Positions 3,371 through 51,934 of a DNA stretch of 64,000 nt are shown piece after piece. Location: positions 40,151 to 104,150 of IMG/VR virus record IMGVR_UViG_3300047089_000152, one strand, 5' to 3'. The translations under genes and the position numbers were made by a program. The stretch's first letter is position 1. The number at the start of each line of letters is the position of its first letter. The DNA comes from a virus. Under the pieces are notes generated by a model, which saw only the letters and a list, made by a program, of their open reading frames with translations, made no database searches and was not told the origin of the DNA.

Positions 3371-4036
3371 ATGCCACCACGCAAGACCACCACAGGCGGA
3401 CCAGTCCAGCTCACCAGGCTGGCAGAAGAAGTCGCCCAAATCCACATCGCCGGGGCTACGCCACTTATTATTCATAAATGGTCGGAAAAGGCGCTCAACC
3501 AGATGCGGATCGCCCAGTCCGGGGCAATTAAGCCGCCCCGCGAACCCAAGAACGCCGAAGAAAACGCCCACGCGGCAACATACTGGGTCGACGTCGCCGA
3601 GACGATCCCCGGCATCCCCAGCGTCTCATTCAAGGCCGCCATGGTCGGAGCCTGCCGGTTCTTCGACGGCCTCCCCATGACGACAGCAAAATTGCTGTTC
3701 TTCGTCGACGGGGTCGTCAGCGAAGCCAAGGGCGACGCGCCAGCACGCGACCTGCTCGTCCCGATTATCTCCGGCCCTGGGGAAATGCGGGAAGACACCC
3801 CGCGCAACGACAACGGAAACCCGGACCTCCGGTACAGGAATCAGTTCTTCCCGTGGAAAGCCGTACTCAACGTGCGGTTCATGCCCGCGAAGATCGCCCC
3901 CGAATCCGTCATCGCGCTAGCTGACGCCGCCGGTCGTGGCGGTGTCGGAGAATGGCGTCCATCCGCACCGAAAAGCGCGACTGGCACATACGGCCAGTTT
4001 CGTGTCATCACCCGGAAGGAATGGGAGTCGGCCTAA
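3371..4036 (+). CDS. stand-alone Cas7/RAMP-like protein, putative guide-RNA-binding filament
   Basis: N-terminal strand IAGATPLIIH, GIPSVSFKAAM (cf. RAMP IPxSSxKG helix), C-terminal glycine-rich loop GRGGVGEWRP...GTYGQFRV; flanked by repeat arrays. Confidence 0.7.
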   Translation: MPPRKTTTGGPVQLTRLAEEVAQIHIAGATPLIIHKWSEKALNQMRIAQSGAIKPPREPKNAEENAHAATYWVDVAETIPGIPSVSFKAAMVGACRFFDGLPMTTAKLLFFVDGVVSEAKGDAPARDLLVPIISGPGEMREDTPRNDNGNPDLRYRNQFFPWKAVLNVRFMPAKIAPESVIALADAAGRGGVGEWRPSAPKSATGTYGQFRVITRKEWESA

Positions 4037-4037
4037 A

Positions 4038-4595
4038 ATGGCGACCATCACCGTCGAACAGCAGTGGGCGTTCAAATCGGGTGCGCGTGTCCCGGGTGGC
4101 GTCCACGCCGAGGATGTGGTGCGTGAGAAGGAACAGATGGAAGACCACCTGGGCCGCCTCGCCACCACGGAGGAAGCCGCGGAAATGGTCCTCCGCTGGC
4201 CTACCAAGTACAAGGCGCACCGGGCGTTCGCACCGGCAACCGAGAAAGAAGCACTCCACGAAGCAGTGGTACGCGGTGTTCGGAGCGCCTGGAGTTCCGT
4301 GATTCAGGTCGACGTCGAAATCACCGAGGTCACCAACCGGATTTCCGGTGATATCGAGATCGCAACCAGGCGTGTCGACGCACCCGAAGTGAGATGGTTT
4401 CACGCCGTGCCAGCACGCGTCGGCGACACGCAACGAGTTTATGACTCGTTGCCGAATATCGCAGCCGATGCTGACAAGGAAGCGGCGCTGTCCGAAGATC
4501 TCGCCACGCAAGCACGCAACTTCTCCGCAAAAGTAGCCAGCGTCACTGGCGAGCTGGCGCGGTTGCACAAGTTGCGCAGCACCGCCGGAAATTAG
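4038..4595 (+). CDS. partner protein of the Cas7-like gene, function unknown
   Basis: ATG 1 nt after the upstream stop; predicted helical; sits directly before the main array. Confidence 0.7.
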   Translation: MATITVEQQWAFKSGARVPGGVHAEDVVREKEQMEDHLGRLATTEEAAEMVLRWPTKYKAHRAFAPATEKEALHEAVVRGVRSAWSSVIQVDVEITEVTNRISGDIEIATRRVDAPEVRWFHAVPARVGDTQRVYDSLPNIAADADKEAALSEDLATQARNFSAKVASVTGELARLHKLRSTAGN

Positions 4596-4636: not shown

Positions 4637-4644
4637 CGGTAAGG

Positions 4645-5923
4645 GGAGTGGAGGGGCAGGGACTGTCGTGGCAAGGAACGGCAGGGCACGGAGTGGATTG
4701 GCAGGATAGGCTCGGCGCGGCCAGGCGGGGAGCGTTTCGGAGTGGCATGGATTGGCTGGGACTGGCAGTATCGGATCGCAGTGGTCAGGGTAGGCAAGGC
4801 CCGGCCAGGCGGGGCTCGGTATGGCCTGCACTGGCGGGGAACGCAATGGAGTGGCAGGACCGGTGTGGAATGGCTGGGACGGGAACGGCGCGGTAGGGAA
4901 TGGAGTGGCAGGAACGGTGGGGCCGGGCGCGGCGCGGCTAGGCTCGGCGCGGACGGGCATGGATTGGCTGGGCAGGACAGGATCGGAGAGCAGGGGGCTG
5001 GCGCGGCATGGCACGGAGAGGCAGGAGAGGAACGGTCGGGACAGGAGCGGCAAGGAGCGCACCGGCAGGCAGCGGCAGGGAATGGCATGGAACGGACTGG
5101 ATTGGCAGGACAGGACCGGCATGGCCAGGAGGGGCATGTCCTGGAATGGAATGGCAGGAATGGCTGGGTACGGCGGGGCCGGGCGAGCATTGGACAGGAC
5201 CGGCAGTCGCGGAAGGGCTCGGCAGGGACCGGATTGCAGCGGCGAGGATGGGCTAGGCAGGAGCGGAACGGCAGGGCATGGCCTGGATCGGAGCGGCTGG
5301 GCAGGATAGGCATGGATCGGCCTGGGTAGGCAAGGAGGGGCTGGGACGGGACCGGATTGGCAGGGCAGCAGTGGAGAGGCAAGCCGTGCAATGGCGGGGC
5401 GGGGCGTGGCATGGACTGGACCGGCAGGACTGGACTGGACTGGATTGGAGAGCAGGGCAGTGGCAGGGATCGTAGGGGTTCGGACGGGCAGGTTAGGCTT
5501 GGACGGGCTAGGCGTGGCATGGGCCGGCAAGGAACGGCTCGGAGCGGCAGGGATTGGCACGGCTCGGAGTGGCAGGACCGGACGGGTACGACGTGGCGTG
5601 GCTGGCATTGGCAAGGACTGGCAGGAGTGGATTGGCAGGGCCGGGCTTGGCATGGCGTGGCTGGGAATGGCGTGGCAGGACAGGTGGGGCTTGGCGGGCC
5701 GGGGATCGGCACGGATGGGCATGGCATGGCCCGGTAGGGCATGGCAGCATTGGACTGGACCGGACCGGCAAGGCTTGGCTTGGCTGGGATCGGATGGGAA
5801 CGGCAGGAGCGGAGCGGACTGTCGTGGCATGGCATGGCCTGGCGTGGCGCGGATCGGACGGGCAGGATAGGTCGGGCGTGGAATGGAACGGACGGGCTGG
5901 GCATGGAACGGCAGGATAGGAGT
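4645..5923 (+). repeat. main GGH-NN pentamer array, about 21 units, putative multi-guide precursor RNA
   Basis: strict 5-nt periodicity; GGCAG+4-nt delimiters at 4700, 4764, 4853, 4907, 4971, 5020, 5104, 5153, 5202, 5256, 5300, 5364, 5423, 5487, 5571, 5620, 5674, 5743, 5802, 5861, 5910; all spacings are 5n+4. Confidence 0.92.
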
Positions 5924-5937
5924 GACCCGCAGGGCTA

Positions 5938-6133: not shown

Positions 6134-6999
6134 ACGAGACCATAGAACGAGAAGACCGCAGGGCCGTCACCGCGCTCACCTCCGGGGAAAACGCCACGAA
6201 GGTCACCGTCAAAACAAGCGACGGCAACTACGAAGAACGACAGCTAACCGTCCACGGGCTCGCACGGCTGATTCCCGTGATCGCACTGGGCGACATGGAC
6301 CGGCTGATAGACGACGTGCGCGAACACGGCGTCCTCGAACCCCTGATCATGTTCCAGGGACAAGTCCTTGACGGACGCAACCGGCTCGCCGTAGCTTCGG
6401 TCGTCGGCGTACCCGTGCAGCTCACCGAATTCGACGGAGACGAAGCCGCAGCCAGAAACTTCGTCTGGTCCGCGAACGCTGCGAGGCGGCACCTGTCCGT
6501 CCCCCAGATCGCGCTGGCCGCTGAACGGTTCGGTTTCGTCGACGCCGCCAAAGCCGAAGCAGGCCCCGACGACCCCAACCTGGATATCCGCTCGACGGTC
6601 GCACCATGGGCGCGAATCGCCGCGCGAAAGGTCGGTGCGATCACCCCGGCTACACTGGAACGGTTCCAGCAAGCCAGGATCCCCGAGGCACCCGACACGA
6701 TGCGCCGGGTCGATTCCGGTGAGATCCGCCGGGTCGACGTCGCGGTCAAGGAAGCGGTCGCGGAGCGGACCGTGCTCACCGGCCGTCTCATCCAGGTTCC
6801 ACCCCCGGTTGCGCGTACCGCGTGGGACCGGCTGGGCTGCGCGCGGGGTGACGTTCTCGCCGCGGAACGCGCCATCCTGGCAGGGGACTGGGGTGGGATG
6901 GAAAGGGACCAGTTCGCTGTCCGCGCCCGTGAAATCCAGGGAGCCCTGATCAGGATTCAGAATTTGTATCGTTATGGATCGGGCGGCAGGACCGGTTAG
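6130..6999 (+). CDS. ParB/Srx-like N-terminal domain protein
   Basis: LIDDVREHGVLEPLI...VLDGRNRL...SANAARRHLS. Confidence 0.85.
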   Translation: MNETIEREDRRAVTALTSGENATKVTVKTSDGNYEERQLTVHGLARLIPVIALGDMDRLIDDVREHGVLEPLIMFQGQVLDGRNRLAVASVVGVPVQLTEFDGDEAAARNFVWSANAARRHLSVPQIALAAERFGFVDAAKAEAGPDDPNLDIRSTVAPWARIAARKVGAITPATLERFQQARIPEAPDTMRRVDSGEIRRVDVAVKEAVAERTVLTGRLIQVPPPVARTAWDRLGCARGDVLAAERAILAGDWGGMERDQFAVRAREIQGALIRIQNLYRYGSGGRTG

Positions 7000-7057
7000 G
7001 ACGGGCTAGGAATGGCTGGGCTGGGCATGGACTGGAATGGCAGGAATGGAATGGCTA
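6985..7057 (+). ncRNA. GGH-NN mini-array (1 full unit), putative guide RNA
   Basis: GGCAG-GACC + 9 pentamers + GGCAG-GAAT. Confidence 0.75.
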
Positions 7058-22598: not shown

Positions 22599-22667
22599 GC
22601 ATTGGAGGGGCATGGCATGGCACGGCCCGGAGTGCTGGGGTGGGGAACGGAATGGATGGGCAGGATA
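22599..22667 (+). ncRNA. GGH-NN mini-array (1 unit), antisense to the late operon
   Basis: 12 pentamers + GGCAG-GATA, intergenic. Confidence 0.8.
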
Positions 22668-39351: not shown

Positions 39352-39429
39352 GGCAGGATGGGATTGGCATGGCGCGGCAAGGTAGGGCTCGGATCGGCAA
39401 GGAATGGATAGGAACGGCAGGAGTGGCAG
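39352..39429 (+). ncRNA. GGH-NN mini-array (1 unit)
   Basis: GGCAG-GATG + 11 pentamers + GGCAG-GAGT, followed by a hairpin. Confidence 0.82.
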
Positions 39430-39431
39430 GG

Positions 39432-39460
39432 TGCGGTCCTCTCGTATCGGGAGGACCGCA
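39432..39460. terminator. hairpin between the mini-array and the convergent radical SAM gene
   Basis: TGCGGTCCTC...GAGGACCGCA. Confidence 0.7.
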
Positions 39461-39477
39461 TCTCCATTTTCCAACCG

Positions 39478-40761
39478 TCATCCTGCCGCCATATGTGAGT
39501 CGAAGAAATTATCCTTCGGGCCGATATGGGAACGGAACTTGTACTTACGGATCAATTCCTCGCGGATTCCCACGAGGTCTTCTGAACTGAGTTCCGCCGT
39601 GCGGACCACGGAATCGGTACCCATGTTCTTTTGCCCGTAGGCGCCAAGTCCTTCTCCAGTAAATATCAGGTCGGTAGCTATTCCCTCGTCCATTTCCCGC
39701 CTGAATTCTGTGCCGCGATAAGGATAATAGATAGCAATCTGCGCATCATCTATCCCTGACGTGCAGATGAACCGTTCAGTCTCCGCGATCGTAGCGCGTG
39801 TCTCGCCGGGTAGCCCGATCATCACGAATGCTTTCACGGTGATGCCCGCATCCTTGCAGTACCGGACACAATCGTAATTCTGCGTGGCGGTTGTCTTCTT
39901 ATCCATCCGGTCTAGCATCTGCTGCGACCCGGATTCCGCACCAAACGCCACCTCGACACACCCCGCATCGGCTAGCGCCGCGGCGAACTCCGCGGTCATG
40001 AATTTCGCGTGCACATTGCAGCGAAATCTTAGCCCGGAGCGCTTGAGTAGGTCCAGGTACGGCTGGCACTTCCCCAAATTAATTGCAAAAAGATCATCAT
40101 ACAAATACACGCCCTCATACCCGAGCGTCACGATGTCGTCCAGTTCGGCCTCGGCGTTGCCCAGCGAAGTCCACCTGGTCAGCGTCCGCGCGTCTTCACA
40201 GAACTTGCACGCCATCGGACAGCCCCGGCCGAGCATCATCGTGGTCGAGTTCAGCCCGGCCAGGGTGTACGAGTAGTTTTTCAGGAACCCAGGCTCACCC
40301 AGCCGGTCCGGGCGGGGCATCGCCGCTAGTTCCTGCCGGGGGATCTGGTCGTTGCTCATGACAGGAACCGTTTTGTTCTGCACGATGCCTGGCAGTGCCC
40401 GCTCCCCGTCGCCTGCCACCAGGTAGTCCCACAGCCCGGCCTGGTCGTCTGCGTTCATCTCCCGGCCGTAATGCCGGACGTGCGGGCCGCCTGCCACCAG
40501 AACTTTGGACGGCCAGCGGCTCCTGATCGCGCGGGCTATCCGGTTAGCCTCGGCGCGCTGCGGTGTCATCACCGAGACGCCTACTATGTCAGCGTCCGCG
40601 AACTGGTCCAGATCCTCGACGTCGTATTCGTCTACGACGCTGATCTTAGTACCGGGGGCCTGCGCGGCCACCGCGGATTTCAGGTACAGCAGGCCGAGGG
40701 GCGGGTAGATACGGTCGTCGTCCAGGAACGGGGACCGGCAGGAAACCAGGGACAGTTTCAT
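39478..40761 (-). CDS. cobalamin-binding radical SAM enzyme (class B methyltransferase-like)
   Basis: PPLGLLYL, GGPH, GDGE B12 domain; GRGCPMACKFC; GAESGSQ; IGLPGET. Confidence 0.92.
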   Translation of the reverse strand: MKLSLVSCRSPFLDDDRIYPPLGLLYLKSAVAAQAPGTKISVVDEYDVEDLDQFADADIVGVSVMTPQRAEANRIARAIRSRWPSKVLVAGGPHVRHYGREMNADDQAGLWDYLVAGDGERALPGIVQNKTVPVMSNDQIPRQELAAMPRPDRLGEPGFLKNYSYTLAGLNSTTMMLGRGCPMACKFCEDARTLTRWTSLGNAEAELDDIVTLGYEGVYLYDDLFAINLGKCQPYLDLLKRSGLRFRCNVHAKFMTAEFAAALADAGCVEVAFGAESGSQQMLDRMDKKTTATQNYDCVRYCKDAGITVKAFVMIGLPGETRATIAETERFICTSGIDDAQIAIYYPYRGTEFRREMDEGIATDLIFTGEGLGAYGQKNMGTDSVVRTAELSSEDLVGIREELIRKYKFRSHIGPKDNFFDSHMAAG

Positions 40762-45022: not shown

Positions 45023-46018
45023 TCACTCGTCGTTGGCGTAGGGGTCTTCGGCGTTGTCCAGCAGGTCCAGCATGGCCAGCGCACCCGTCAGGGTCTTCTT
45101 CCGCTCCTGCTTGGCCTTCGCCTGCCGCGGGCCAGTATTGTCGGTCCGCTTGAAGAACTCCATCGCCCTGTTCTCGACCAGACGCTCCCGGACCTCTTCC
45201 GGTTCGGCCTGCGCCCACTGAGCCAGCGAGTACACGGCACCGTTGATAGCCCGCGCCGCCGCTGTCGCGTCCGGATAGGCAGGGTCCAGTACCGGGGCCA
45301 CGTCGATCAGCTGCACCGCGTGCAACGTCCGCATCGGATACCCGAACTGGTCCGAAACCCCCCACTCATCCCCACCCGGGAACACCCGGAAAGCGAAAGA
45401 CGAGTGGCAGATGTCGCCGCGCTGCACATATTCCAGCACGTCCCTGCGGGCCTGCGGGGGTTCCACGTCATACATCAGCCCGGTCGAGTCGATACCCAGC
45501 TTCAGCGTGTTCGCCCGGGTAGTACCCAGCAGCGCGTCGTCGCTGTGGTTGTACCGGCACACCACATCCGGCCACCCGTCCTGCTTGGATTCATCGAACG
45601 CGTTCCGGTTCACCTGCTCCACGAAACCGCCCAGCTTCCTGGACAGCTTATCGAAACACGCCGCGTAACCCCAGATGTGCTGCGCCTTGTCCTGTTCCGT
45701 CCGCACTTCCAGCGGGAACCGGACGAACCGCCGCTCAGGGAACGAACCAGAATCCGGTTCCATCCCCCCGAACGCACGCGCCGCGCCCGTCACGTTCACG
45801 CCATGCTTACGCGCAGCACCGATGATCGCCGGCATCGCGTCCTTACCGAACGGCGAATTAGGAGCCTGCGACAGCGATAGCCGCACCGCGGCGGCATCGT
45901 GTATCGGGAAGTGACGCTTGTCCCGCGGCGTTGTGCGCCCGCTCATGTCACGCATCCCGCCAGGCTCAATCAAAGCGAACTGACTGTCAAGCAGGTTGTG
46001 GGTGTCCAGCTCAGCCAT
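45023..46018 (-). CDS. HK97-family prohead protease with N-terminal extension
   Basis: GYAACF...LGGFVE, YNH, LGTT, SSFAF, DVAPVLDPAYPD; extension RHFPIHD...VRLSL. Confidence 0.92.
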   Translation of the reverse strand: MAELDTHNLLDSQFALIEPGGMRDMSGRTTPRDKRHFPIHDAAAVRLSLSQAPNSPFGKDAMPAIIGAARKHGVNVTGAARAFGGMEPDSGSFPERRFVRFPLEVRTEQDKAQHIWGYAACFDKLSRKLGGFVEQVNRNAFDESKQDGWPDVVCRYNHSDDALLGTTRANTLKLGIDSTGLMYDVEPPQARRDVLEYVQRGDICHSSFAFRVFPGGDEWGVSDQFGYPMRTLHAVQLIDVAPVLDPAYPDATAAARAINGAVYSLAQWAQAEPEEVRERLVENRAMEFFKRTDNTGPRQAKAKQERKKTLTGALAMLDLLDNAEDPYANDE

Positions 46019-46049: not shown

Positions 46050-46406
46050 TCAGGATTTCCTGGCGGGCCGGGCCTTATTCATAGATTTCGCGGGCTTTTT
46101 AGCCGCGGGCTTAGCCGCAGCAGGCTTCGCTTCGGCAGCAGGCTTCGCGGTCTTCGCGGCAGCTGAATCGCCCTTACCCTGCGAGGATGGCAACTCCGGG
46201 TATTTCCGACGGACCGCTGCCTGAACTTTTGCCTTCTCCGCAGGCGTCCCATTCGCCGCAACTCGTGACAGGGCGTTAGCGCCCCGTGCCTTAGAGTTAA
46301 TAGGGTATGCGTCAGCACCACCAGGACCACCACCAGGCAGCGCATACGACCCAGCCGGCGCGGCAGTATTAGGCGCAGGCTTACCGGTCTTCTTCCTCGG
46401 TGGCAT
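46050..46406 (-). CDS. basic head-region protein with Lys/Pro/Ala-rich tail
   Basis: YALP...YPI...NALSR...VRRKYP, similar to the protease N-terminal extension. Confidence 0.7.
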   Translation of the reverse strand: MPPRKKTGKPAPNTAAPAGSYALPGGGPGGADAYPINSKARGANALSRVAANGTPAEKAKVQAAVRRKYPELPSSQGKGDSAAAKTAKPAAEAKPAAAKPAAKKPAKSMNKARPARKS

Positions 46407-46425
46407 ATAATCTCCCTTAGTGCCA

Positions 46426-46499
46426 GGTATGGAGGGGTGCGGCTTGGCGTGGCTTGGCGGGGCGCGGCGGGGATTGCATTGGATTGGATTGGCAGGAAC
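46426..46499 (+). ncRNA. GGH-NN mini-array (1 unit)
   Basis: TATAAT at 46406-46411; 13 pentamers + GGCAG-GAAC; then a hairpin. Confidence 0.8.
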
Positions 46500-46500
46500 G

Positions 46501-46535
46501 TCACTGACCTGCACCTACGCGGTGCAGGTCAGTGA
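46501..46535. terminator. 15-bp hairpin between the mini-array and the portal stop
   Basis: TCACTGACCTGCACC-TACGC-GGTGCAGGTCAGTGA. Confidence 0.8.
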
Positions 46536-48164
46536 TTCCCGTTGTGTCCGTTTGAGCTGGCCTTCGGCGGAATCCACGGCCCGACGAACTCGGGGCCAAG
46601 CGCATCATCACGTTCCGCCTGGCGGACCGCTGCGACAATCTTCGCGAACACTTCCGGGTGGACACTGGAACCATCGCCGCGCACGGACGTGATCTCCTTG
46701 ACGATCTCCTGGAGAACATTCGGCGGGACGAACCCGCCCGCACCCGCAGCACCAGCCGCACCCGCCACGGCAGGCCCGTTCGCGCCCAGAGCACCAGGCA
46801 CGTTTATCCCAGGCGGGGCGTTCCCCGCACCAGGCCCCGACGGCTGACCCGTACCCGGCGGCAACCCCACCGGCTCCTGACCAGCCTGGAGTTCTTGCAG
46901 ATACTCGACCAGCAGCCGCTGTTCCAGGGTGACCTGCGGGAGGAACGAATTCGGGATCGCCCGCGTCGACCGGGCCATCGCGACAATCGCGTCCAGCGGG
47001 ATCGTGTCCTTACCCATCTGCTGCGGCAACGGCTCCAGGTCCTCCGTGTCACGCATCTCATCAATCGACTTGAACCCGATGTCCCGCCACGTCTTGTAAA
47101 TGTTCGCCCGTTCAGCCAGGTCAGCTTTCAGCAGCGCGTCAGTAGCGAACCGGGCGTAACGGTTCGCCGGTAGCAGCTTGAAGAACGCGGTCTCCAGCCG
47201 GACCAGCCACGGGCGCAGCGCCTCGATGATCTGCAACGCACCCTGCTGCACCGTGGAATACGTCAGCGAGTCGCCACGCTTACCACCCACCCGGTCAGGA
47301 GGCAATCCATAAACAGCGGCGAGCTGCGTCGCGTTCATCTGCATCGCCTCAATAAACTGCGCCTCCGACGGCGGAACAGTCACCGGGTGATAATCCCAGT
47401 CACGACCGTATACCAAGGGGGTCCTGTTGCGAATCGACTGGTTCAGTGCGCTGCGGATCTCCGCAGCCTGCGACGGGTCGATCTCGATCTCGTTGTTCTT
47501 GAACGTACCCGGAGGGAACCCGCCGGCCTTGAACCAGTCCGTCCCGAACCGGGTAGCCTCCAGGCCATTCAGGATCGTCAACGCGAACGCGCGCAGCGGA
47601 GAGATACCCTCCGTGCGGCCAGCAAGACTGAATGCCTTGATGTGGAAATATTCGTCGCGCTGCATCAACCGCCCGTAAAAATACACGCGGGACCGAAGCG
47701 GATTGTACGGCTGCGACTCGTCGTCAATGACCGTGATCATCTCCGGGGGCATCCACTGGATCTGCGTCGGATACCCGTACCCGTCACGCCCCAGAATGTA
47801 TCCCCACGCGTTACCGTGCAGCAAAAGCGCGGTCAAGCATTCATAAAGCCAATCCATAAGATTTGTTGACGGGGACGGGTCGTCGAATATCGACGGGCCA
47901 TCCCACTTCTTCTGCCCCGCACCCGGCGTTTTAATGTAAACTTTCAGCGGCAACGACGCGATGTACTCAGCGATCATCCGCACGCACGCGTACAGCGGTG
48001 TCAGTCTTAGCGCCTCGTCGGCCCCGTAAAACGAACGGGACGGATGCGCAGGGCCACCAGCACTGAAGGGAAAGTAAATACGGCGAGTCCCACGGCCTCC
48101 AGGGCACGCCAGAAATAACACGACTCTCAGTTTTACTCGCCAGTACCCGCTCGACCAGACCCAC
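46529..48164 (-). CDS. HK97-family portal protein (apparent frameshift near codon 30)
   Basis: YACVRMIA...SLPL, LLLHGNAW, GISPL, AQFIE, YSTVQQ; natural N-terminus MGLVERV lies in another frame. Confidence 0.9.
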
Positions 48165-50288: not shown

Positions 50289-50303
50289 GTAGGTACAGAA
50301 AGG

Positions 50304-50362
50304 GGATAGGAGCGGCAGGGCTTGGCCTGGAGAGGATCGGCTGGGATTGGATTGGCAGGCTT
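50304..50362 (+). ncRNA. GGH-NN mini-array (1 unit)
   Basis: 10 pentamers + GGCAG-GCTT. Confidence 0.78.
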
Positions 50363-51934
50363 TTAGCCGATAGATCGCAACGGGTTATAGCCTCGCCTCA
50401 GTCTGTTATATGCCCAGTGGGCGATGGTCGCGGAGGTCAGCGCGGTGATGTTTGACGCGCTGTTCTTCCGCGACCATCCTCGCATCCCGTCGCCGATGTC
50501 CCTGGTCTCCGCGCGGGCCACAGCGGACCGCAGATAGGGTGCCTCGTCGGGTCCCAGCTGCCCGAGCTGTTTATCGCGGATCGCGGTGACCATCAGGGTG
50601 AACGCCTGCGCCTCCTCAGCGGAGGTCACCTTCATCAGCTCGATCCCGCGGTTTTCCGCGTCGTCCATCAACGCGGAGGCGGGTGCTGTCTTCGGGATCG
50701 CGATACCCAGAGGCCGCCACTTCTTCCGCAGCTCCATTAGTTTCGGGACGACCCACGCGGTACCGGGCCGGAAGCAGTCCTGGGGTTGTTCCACGATGAC
50801 GATCCCGTCGGAGGGACGCATCCACGCCACGGAGATACACGCGGCGGTCAGGTCTGGTGTCACGTCGACAGCGAAACATACCGGGGTCGCGGTCCCGCCG
50901 AGGATAGACGTTTCGCATGCGTTCCACTGGTCCTCGGAGACGGCCAGCCATCCTTCTTCGTCGGTGGGCCAGTGTCCCGCGCCGAGACGTTCCACGTTGA
51001 ACGCGTCCTCGGGCATGCTATTCAGTTCCCACGCCACATGCTCAGCGGTGATCCGGTAGCCCAGAGCGGGGTTCGCTTTCGCCCAGGACAGCGGGTCGTC
51101 CCGGTCGTCATGCTCGGGGCAGACGATGAACTCGTTGGACCGGCGTCCGGTCCGCTCGTCGCGGGGGCATAGCTCGTTGTGCGGCCGGATCGACCACTCG
51201 AAGTAGGCGAGCCGTTCATCGTCGCCGCGGATACCGCGCCTGCGCACGGATGCTAGCTGGGTGGAGTCAGGGTAGCCAGCCGAGGCAAGGTACCACAGTT
51301 GCGGGTTCGGGACCGCGGACATGGTAGGCATAGAAGCGCCGACCTGGTCGACTGTCAAAATCATCGCCTCGTCCCAGACCAGGCAGTTACACGTAAACGA
51401 ACGGCCTGAACCACGGGACCGGGCGAGGAACCGGAGCCGGGGCGCGACTGTCTTGCGGATCAGTTTCGCGCGGGACCCGAAGATCAGCGCGGGGGAGGGT
51501 CGTAGCAGGACCGCTTCCTCACCGTGTGAGGTGATCACCGATTTGATCCGGCGGGACAGTTCCTCGGAGTTACTGATCCGGTCTTTCAACCGGAGGAAAT
51601 GCTCGTTGGACGCCTTGAATTCGTGGGCCGTGTGAATGATCAACGGCTCCGATAGCTCGAACAGGCCGAATAGTTCCCGGCCCTCCACGATGGCGTTTTT
51701 CCCGTTCTGCCGGGATAGTACCTCGGCGACTTCTTTCGCCGCCCATGTCCCGTTCGGTCGGGTGCCGAGCGCGTTTTCCAGTGACCAAGCCTGCCACGGG
51801 TCCCACTCGAAACCGACCGATTCGCAGAACTCGACGCACTCCAGCCCCGTCTGGTTCGAGGCGCTGACGGGCAGTGAGGAGATCCTTGGTTCCTGCACCC
51901 CGTACAGTTCGTCGGGTAGCGCGGGCATTGCCAC
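50363..51934 (-). CDS. terminase large subunit
   Basis: SRQNGKN Walker A, HTAH, WDEA Walker B, ANPALG, FAVDV nuclease motif. Confidence 0.95.
   Translation of the reverse strand: MAMPALPDELYGVQEPRISSLPVSASNQTGLECVEFCESVGFEWDPWQAWSLENALGTRPNGTWAAKEVAEVLSRQNGKNAIVEGRELFGLFELSEPLIIHTAHEFKASNEHFLRLKDRISNSEELSRRIKSVITSHGEEAVLLRPSPALIFGSRAKLIRKTVAPRLRFLARSRGSGRSFTCNCLVWDEAMILTVDQVGASMPTMSAVPNPQLWYLASAGYPDSTQLASVRRRGIRGDDERLAYFEWSIRPHNELCPRDERTGRRSNEFIVCPEHDDRDDPLSWAKANPALGYRITAEHVAWELNSMPEDAFNVERLGAGHWPTDEEGWLAVSEDQWNACETSILGGTATPVCFAVDVTPDLTAACISVAWMRPSDGIVIVEQPQDCFRPGTAWVVPKLMELRKKWRPLGIAIPKTAPASALMDDAENRGIELMKVTSAEEAQAFTLMVTAIRDKQLGQLGPDEAPYLRSAVARAETRDIGDGMRGWSRKNSASNITALTSATIAHWAYNRLRRGYNPLRSIG

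Follow-up and report, generated by a model that had tools for sequence, protein, structure and literature searches.

A VIPR system consists of a Cas7-like Vipr protein and vrRNAs of 9-16 GGY/NN pentamers, whose NN pairs read double-stranded DNA while passing over one base per pair, usually at a codon wobble position; silencing works from either strand, the E. coli system that has been studied requires GGY, and a natural target is counted at an NN match of at least 80%, a level at which zero self hits were reported (bioRxiv 10.64898/2026.04.26.720920). According to a structural preprint, filament assembly and unwinding run from the 3' tail toward the 5' end (bioRxiv 10.64898/2026.04.26.720927). 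In a third preprint, solo vrRNAs are defined as lying more than 20 kb from any vipr gene, and those published hijack the Vipr of another element and aim at decoys, vipr genes, and arrays (bioRxiv 10.64898/2026.10.15.759431). The first descriptions of VIPR date from 2026, and the phages in which it has been investigated are those of E. coli and Pseudomonas. To our knowledge, no acquisition machinery is known for VIPR guides.

Virus-borne CRISPR mini-arrays and solitary repeat units, carried by archaeal viruses and phages, aim at close relatives, and the free-standing homing endonuclease genes of T-even phages sit beside a resistant allele of their cleavage site. The window analyzed here, DNA of a soil-type phage with 64% GC, is the final 64 kb of a 104,150-base virus record, and at 46426 it carries what we read, with a probability of roughly 80%, as a stand-alone VIPR vrRNA gene inserted in antisense orientation at the junction of the portal gene and a small head gene and aimed at the small gene of related phages.

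Insertion between two head genes

On the minus strand, the genes around the cassette run in the order portal, small K/P/A-rich gene, prohead protease, major capsid protein.

46529-47950, minus strand: portal gene (Phage_portal PF04860), stop codon at 46529-46531 and gene start farther upstream; the cassette runs antisense into its 3' end
46417-46528, no strand assigned: inserted DNA of about 112 nt between the portal stop and the ribosome-binding site of the small gene, where relatives have 4-14 nt in the alignment
46050-46406, minus strand: small K/P/A-rich head-module gene of 118 aa (MPPRKK...), with a DUF6582-like lead only, whose conserved KPAPNTKAP codons are what the guide would read
45023-46018, minus strand: prohead protease (Peptidase_S78), next downstream of the small gene

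The small gene begins about 120 bases from the portal stop, with an ATG at 46406-46404 and a GGGAG ribosome-binding site five bases upstream of it. None of the 37 related loci found in IMG/VR by portal and small-protein searches has a pentamer array at the junction of the two genes, and in some 20 relatives without the cassette the portal stop abuts the small gene. Judged from these alignments, the cassette is an insertion between two head genes.

The junction is a variable one. L019/L021:223-452 carry a different insert of 230 nt, some loci hold about 800 nt of other DNA (L008:5410-6208), and L006, L010, L016, and L017 are also listed for variation there. Several relatives have no small gene at all, which marks it as accessory, and those phages would thus be immune to the guide at 46426. 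The small gene of this phage (46050-46406) is also unusually AT3-rich, at 42% versus 19-24% in the portal, protease, and capsid genes.

Structure of the guide cassette

The cassette occupies 46399-46535 on the plus strand, and its parts are as follows.

46399-46411, plus strand: likely promoter GGTGGCATATAAT, with the -10 hexamer TATAAT at 46406-46411, 14 nt 5' of the first unit
46426-46490, plus strand: guide tract of the stand-alone vrRNA, 13 pentamers (8 GGY, 4 GGA, 1 GCA)
46491-46500, plus strand: end punctuation GGCA/GGAACG (read straight through the slash)
46501-46535, plus strand: closing hairpin, arms 46501-46515 and 46521-46535, 15 perfect pairs, 5-nt loop, fold z = -3.6

The tract keeps a strict 5-nt register, with GG at the start of 12 of the 13 units and a pyrimidine at position 3 in 8/13 (GGTAT GGAGG GGTGC GGCTT GGCGT GGCTT GGCGG GGCGC GGCGG GGATT GCATT GGATT GGATT, then GGCA). 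A sequence-only reading of this DNA had reported a mini-array at 46426, a 15-bp hairpin closing it, and a perfect TATAAT overlapping the start codon of the divergent gene. Its string of NN pairs (AT GG GC TT GT TT GG GC GG TT TT TT TT) was reproduced exactly and all 15 pairs of the hairpin were recovered; the hexamer is present, but its overlap with the ATG comes to one base only. The other figures of that reading were recovered as well. The distal arm of the hairpin includes the last portal codon and its TGA stop, and the outer seven pairs are built from the conserved end of the portal gene (TCACTGA). No U-run follows the hairpin on its 3' side, and a consensus terminator scan returned no U-tract terminator.

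The TATAAT was formed within the spacer between the Shine-Dalgarno sequence and the ATG of the minus-strand small gene and is absent from the relatives in the alignment; a simple sigma-70 consensus scan found no two-hexamer promoter near the cassette. The sequence GGTGGCATATAAT is related to a motif, GTGGTAnnnT, that lies 7-15 nt 5' of four other arrays. This motif occurs 10 times versus 4.6 expected, eight of them on the plus strand (window positions 1713, 3145, 22582, 39327, 50279, 54100, 57392, and 60552), where four stand directly 5' of pentamer arrays and the rest 5' of plus-strand genes, and it is probably the -10-type promoter class of this phage. Among GenBank phages, blastn found nothing similar to the region.

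Vipr homolog and other arrays of the phage

Two other features of the window bear on the identity of the cassette.

3371-4036, plus strand: vipr gene, some 42 kb from the cassette, putative effector for its guide
4640-5924, plus strand: main staggered vrRNA array of 1.3 kb, units of 8-16 pentamers split by GGCA/GGA

A profile built from 50 homologs of the protein encoded at 3371-4036 had as its sole PDB match 36pp, "SUSP1 Vipr protein" (E 1.4e-6), including the GVGDWRP loop, and an AlphaFold model made from the alignment (pLDDT 88) matched the Cas7-type RAMPs Cmr4/Csm3 (Foldseek E 1e-5). The phage thus encodes a Vipr homolog with a predicted Cas7-like fold. The open reading frame 3' of vipr (within 3936-4595) has no match in Pfam or PHROG, and Vipr was not found in five records of relatives, one of them 97% complete.

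Period-5 GG arrays occupy seven regions of the window, all on the plus strand, and no CC equivalents appear at the same threshold. The main array has the same mixed GGY/GGA scaffold as the cassette, and because it stands beside vipr we accept this scaffold as a "related consensus" of the kind that the VIPR paper allows. The GGCA/GGA mark of the cassette recurs at the unit borders of the main array and at the 3' ends of the solo guides at 22599 and 39346, which have hairpins of 19 and 16 bp in the equivalent place, each of a different sequence. Solos 6979 and 50294 are without a comparable hairpin.

Match to the phage's own small gene

The best 1-nt-skip match of the guide in the whole 104-kb genome (about 208,000 positions, both strands; the runner-up scores 18) lies 35 nt from the guide tract.

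46353-46391, plus strand: the phage's own near-target, small-gene codons 6-18 (KTGKPAPNTAAPA), 19/26 guide bases (73%)

The earlier proposal that the array matches the 5' end of the divergent head-region gene is thus borne out. Read as xNN, the site gives GC GG GC GC GT TT GG GC GG TT CC GT TT, so that 9 of the 13 pairs agree and units 5-10 do so consecutively, the same count and the same run of six as first noted. In all 13 codons, 6-18 (K6-A18 on the minus strand), it is the wobble base that is skipped, both in the phage itself and in its relatives, and the mismatches of the own allele include units 11-12, near the 3' end of the guide, and unit 4. When the 13 pairs were permuted, 2.9% of the guides reached 19/26 in the small gene and 0.7% reached 9/13 pairs, with 12% as the genome-wide figure; a score of at least 17/26 in the small gene was attained in 29% of trials. 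With a K/P/A-rich gene and a guide full of TT, GG, and GC, low complexity contributes to the score, and the self match taken by itself has only moderate significance (p about 0.01-0.03). At 73%, this best match in the phage's own genome also means that the guide has no self-target of 80% or more. T-ending codons make up 6/13 at the own site (core CCT GCG CCT AAT ACT) versus a mean of 1.7 in the sites of 15 relatives, an excess that the AT3-richness of the whole gene leaves unestablished.

Match to the small gene of related phages

At the same site, the small gene of relatives matches the guide at 21-23 of 26 bases (81-88%) versus 73% for self. Alleles at 23/26 include KRKKPAPNTKAPK, AKKKPAPNTKAPK, and KGKKPAPNTKAPK, another, KGKKPAPNTKAPA, scores 22/26, and further alleles score 21/26. 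The sequence-only reading had suggested a search for homologs with similar N termini, and it was such alleles at the homologous position, AKKKPAPNTKAPK, KRKKPAPNTKAPK, and KGKKPAPNTKAPA among them, that the search returned. A natural target at 80% or more under a gapless 1-nt skip is thus present in the IMG/VR relatives and in the small-gene homolog of an Actinocrinis MAG.

The family is broad enough to show how this allele stands out. A search of 5.8 billion proteins gave 120 homolog clusters, at least 49 of which have alleles at 21/26 or better under a best-case codon reading, and conservation across the family peaks in the KPAPNTKAP core. At the position after NT, 96 clusters have K and 19 have P, E, Q, R, or D, the motif is missing in 5, and A occurs in none of the 120; this phage has A, a K-to-A replacement that takes a multi-base change. 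With the K restored, the own allele would score 21/26 (81%), so that this unique change brings the self match from 81% down to 73%, under the published 80% criterion.

It had been recognized beforehand that the low complexity of the K/P/A-rich sequence might account for the match in shuffling tests. Composition-preserving permuted guides reached 23/26 in the loci of relatives in 2 of 3000 trials (p about 7e-4), and the match survives this test. The signal is also confined to the expected register, with 23 at a 1-nt skip versus 17-18 at skips of 0, 2, and 3, and ten guides from the main array, used as a control, gave nothing comparable and no convincing targets in the head-region loci. Low complexity as a full explanation is ruled out by the shuffles and by a signal at the 1-nt skip only.

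The collections contain no perfect counterpart of the guide. The exact full 26-base target pattern had no match in IMG/VR and a 24-base pattern none in the metagenomes, where a 22-base pattern found two contigs (best 23/26); the 20-base core had 23 matches in GTDB genomes, of which only the Actinocrinis MAG (L076) has a small-gene homolog, and most of the others, in unrelated taxa, resemble random hits to low-complexity sequence. Across the viral, genome, and metagenome collections, 23/26 was the highest target score, and guide unit 1 (AT) is matched in no allele found. The guide had been decoded as KKKKPAPNTKAP, a variant of the neighbor's N terminus; related alleles do exist, but neither the four-lysine allele nor a perfect match was seen. 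The Actinocrinis sp. contig (Actinomycetota; L076:4346-4384) carries a 23/26 target, PKKKPAPNTKAPK, in its small-gene homolog and may hint at the host range of the phage family. In low-GC phage contigs (L038, L040, L044-L050, L054, and L061), repetitive K/P/N-rich proteins of the NKPAPNTNAPTPVN type match the guide core at 23/26 by chance, which calls for caution in target calls for low-complexity guides.

These data bear on the reading that the cassette is a decayed or inert pentamer repeat whose likeness to the K/P/A-rich gene stems from low complexity shared by the two. The ease with which permuted guides reach 17/26, the matches of the core to unrelated low-GC proteins, the single GCA unit, and the want of a known perfect target would all fit such a relic. 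Pair order nevertheless matters for the 23/26 in relatives, the codon register holds at the homologous site at the 1-nt skip only, promoter, end mark, and hairpin are intact, and the adjacency of guide and near-self site recurs at three other solos, and we consider a chance origin quite improbable.

Adjacency of solo guides and near-self sites

For four of the five solos, the genome-best 1-nt-skip match lies within 40-720 nt of the guide itself, the best self matches being 90% (6979), 79% (22599), 83% (39346), and 73% (46426). The chance of four in five adjoining their best self match is about 2e-7 by a simple binomial estimate, and this clustering argues that the adjacency at 46426 is nonaccidental. 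The match of solo 6979 is 18/20 and that of solo 39346 is 20/24, each at its own neighboring DNA (window 6949-7038 and 39356-40110). Both exceed the self level of 80% at which the VIPR paper reported zero hits, so that this line may not split self from target in the present subtype. The self match of the fifth solo (50294; window 50304-50353) never rises above 65%, and in the fetched relatives this guide has a borderline 16/20 match only (L036, L037, L053, and L057).

Such proximity would also be expected if the guide served the phage's own regulation, the partial match allowing the Vipr-vrRNA complex to damp or time the small gene and the protease and capsid genes downstream of it. The best genomic match is only 35 nt away, four of five solos share this arrangement, two of them at 83% and 90%, and the self site overlaps the region upstream of the TATAAT; in a variant of this idea, the site, 15-53 nt upstream of the cassette -10, could feed back on the guide's own promoter. 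The own site, on the other hand, matches worse than most alleles of relatives and falls below the published 80% line, and the family-unique K-to-A change lowers the match where a self-regulator should stay complementary to its operator. Self-regulation therefore appears unlikely to us.

Assignment to VIPR

The cassette resembles staggered-array VIPR (10.64898/2026.04.26.720920) in its pentamers with a fixed GG-trinucleotide and a variable NN, its 13 units within the range of 9-16, its reading at a 1-nt skip that falls on the codon wobble, the Vipr RAMP encoded by the same phage, and a target of at least 80% in competing phages with no self match of at least 80% for the cassette guide. It differs from it in a scaffold that mixes GGC/GGT with GGA and one GCA and in its place 42 kb from vipr, inside the head operon and on the opposite strand; its 3' end is GGCA/GGA followed by a plain hairpin, unlike the pseudoknot tail of SUSP1, and no SUSP1-like pseudoknot was seen at the cassette. 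The cassette is like the solo vrRNAs of phage satellites and VIPR-null phages in being a stand-alone guide with its own putative promoter and tail, distant from vipr, and unlike them in residing in a VIPR-positive phage, beside that phage's own diverged copy of the target; term searches of the solo preprint turned up no account of a guide linked in this way to a diverged target copy (bioRxiv 10.64898/2026.10.15.759431). Because the testable defining features of a VIPR vrRNA are present, we file the cassette as a VIPR vrRNA gene, and on its sequence features it is a real stand-alone VIPR guide gene.

A different kind of element could in principle occupy this position, namely a G-rich spacer, prone to quadruplex formation or bound by protein, or an antisense RNA, with either one governing how the small gene is translated or how stable the portal transcript is. 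In favor of this, a GG at each fifth base might allow two-tier quadruplexes, the cassette lies within the small gene's 5' leader, and its hairpin takes in the portal stop codon. This reading leaves unexplained both the 1-nt-skip spelling of the neighboring gene family and the presence of the same architecture in the 1.3-kb array beside the Vipr gene, and an Rfam search of the cassette region found no family; we hold it to be highly improbable. A quadruplex or leader element was rejected as an explanation on the grounds of the codon-register match.

Proposed mode of action and ecological implications

The cassette looks like a weapon against relatives that is kept beside an immune copy of its target. 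From the -10-type promoter (TATAAT with the GTGG-type upstream motif), transcription would head away from the small gene and give an RNA of some 110 nt that holds 13 GGN/NN units and the GGCA/GGA end mark and ends at the strong hairpin. Vipr protomers supplied from the locus 42 kb away would cover the repeats so that the 13 NN pairs are exposed, and the resulting filament would read duplex DNA, leaving out one base at each pair. Because the guide spells the conserved KPAPNTKAP and its lysine-rich flank, the filament may bind the small gene in co-infecting or resident relatives, and because this gene lies inside their portal-protease-capsid operon, a filament sitting there could stop the head genes from being transcribed. 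At a distance of 35 nt, the copy in the phage itself would stay below the binding criterion through its TG variant at the 3' side of the guide and the unique K-to-A change in the core; the mismatches at units 11-12 would favor self-avoidance if the 3' to 5' directionality holds in this subtype. With the guide kept 35 bases from the immune allele, recombination would be unable to yield a self-targeting genome. The anatomy, the insertion, the match statistics, the survey of alleles, and the Vipr homolog are observed, and we infer transcription, Vipr loading, and silencing, as well as 73% being too low and 81-88% being enough in this subtype.

A wider reading, tentative but possible, is that the cassette makes up, together with the mismatched allele beside it, a single linked module of weapon plus immunity and that the solo guides of this lineage are born at, or kept beside, their target gene. 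If so, in mixed infections the guide would silence the head operons of relatives and only recombinants that inherit both guide and immune allele would survive, so that the module could spread like a homing element, without a nuclease. The adjacency of guide and near-self site at three other solos points to linkage selection or a local origin of guides, and if guides do arise locally, this adjacency would be a first handle on how VIPR guides are made.

By analogy, the cassette may be likened to viral CRISPR mini-arrays, where a minimal guide hits a conserved gene of relatives and the allele of the carrier is mismatched, although these have contiguous spacers between CRISPR repeats, whereas here NN pairs are interleaved in pentamers and the effector is another one. 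It would likewise parallel the T-even homing endonucleases in having a weapon gene between conserved genes, the neighboring gene of relatives as target, and an own copy made immune by a few substitutions, with tight linkage perhaps holding weapon and immunity together as it does there; unlike that protein nuclease, the guide would act by RNA-guided binding, and there is no sign that the target genome is cut or that the cassette is copied into it. What appears distinctive against the VIPR preprints is a solo guide in a VIPR-positive phage, beside a diverged copy of the target that carries a family-unique escape substitution.

The cassette offers a clean natural example of VIPR in a GC-rich actinophage-type genome, in which the self copy can be compared directly with the target and the relatives; its guide is directed against the best-conserved codons in a family of accessory head-module genes. 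The own 39-bp site and those of the relatives are a ready pair for measuring mismatch tolerance in a new VIPR subtype. A relative with a portal 84% identical (L015:857-951, minus strand) carries a solo of the same build, with the GGTGGTACGTT motif, 14 pentamers, and a tail, GGCA/GGCTATAACC, that resembles window 50294-50368; its guide is a different one, so that relatives, too, are armed with guides.
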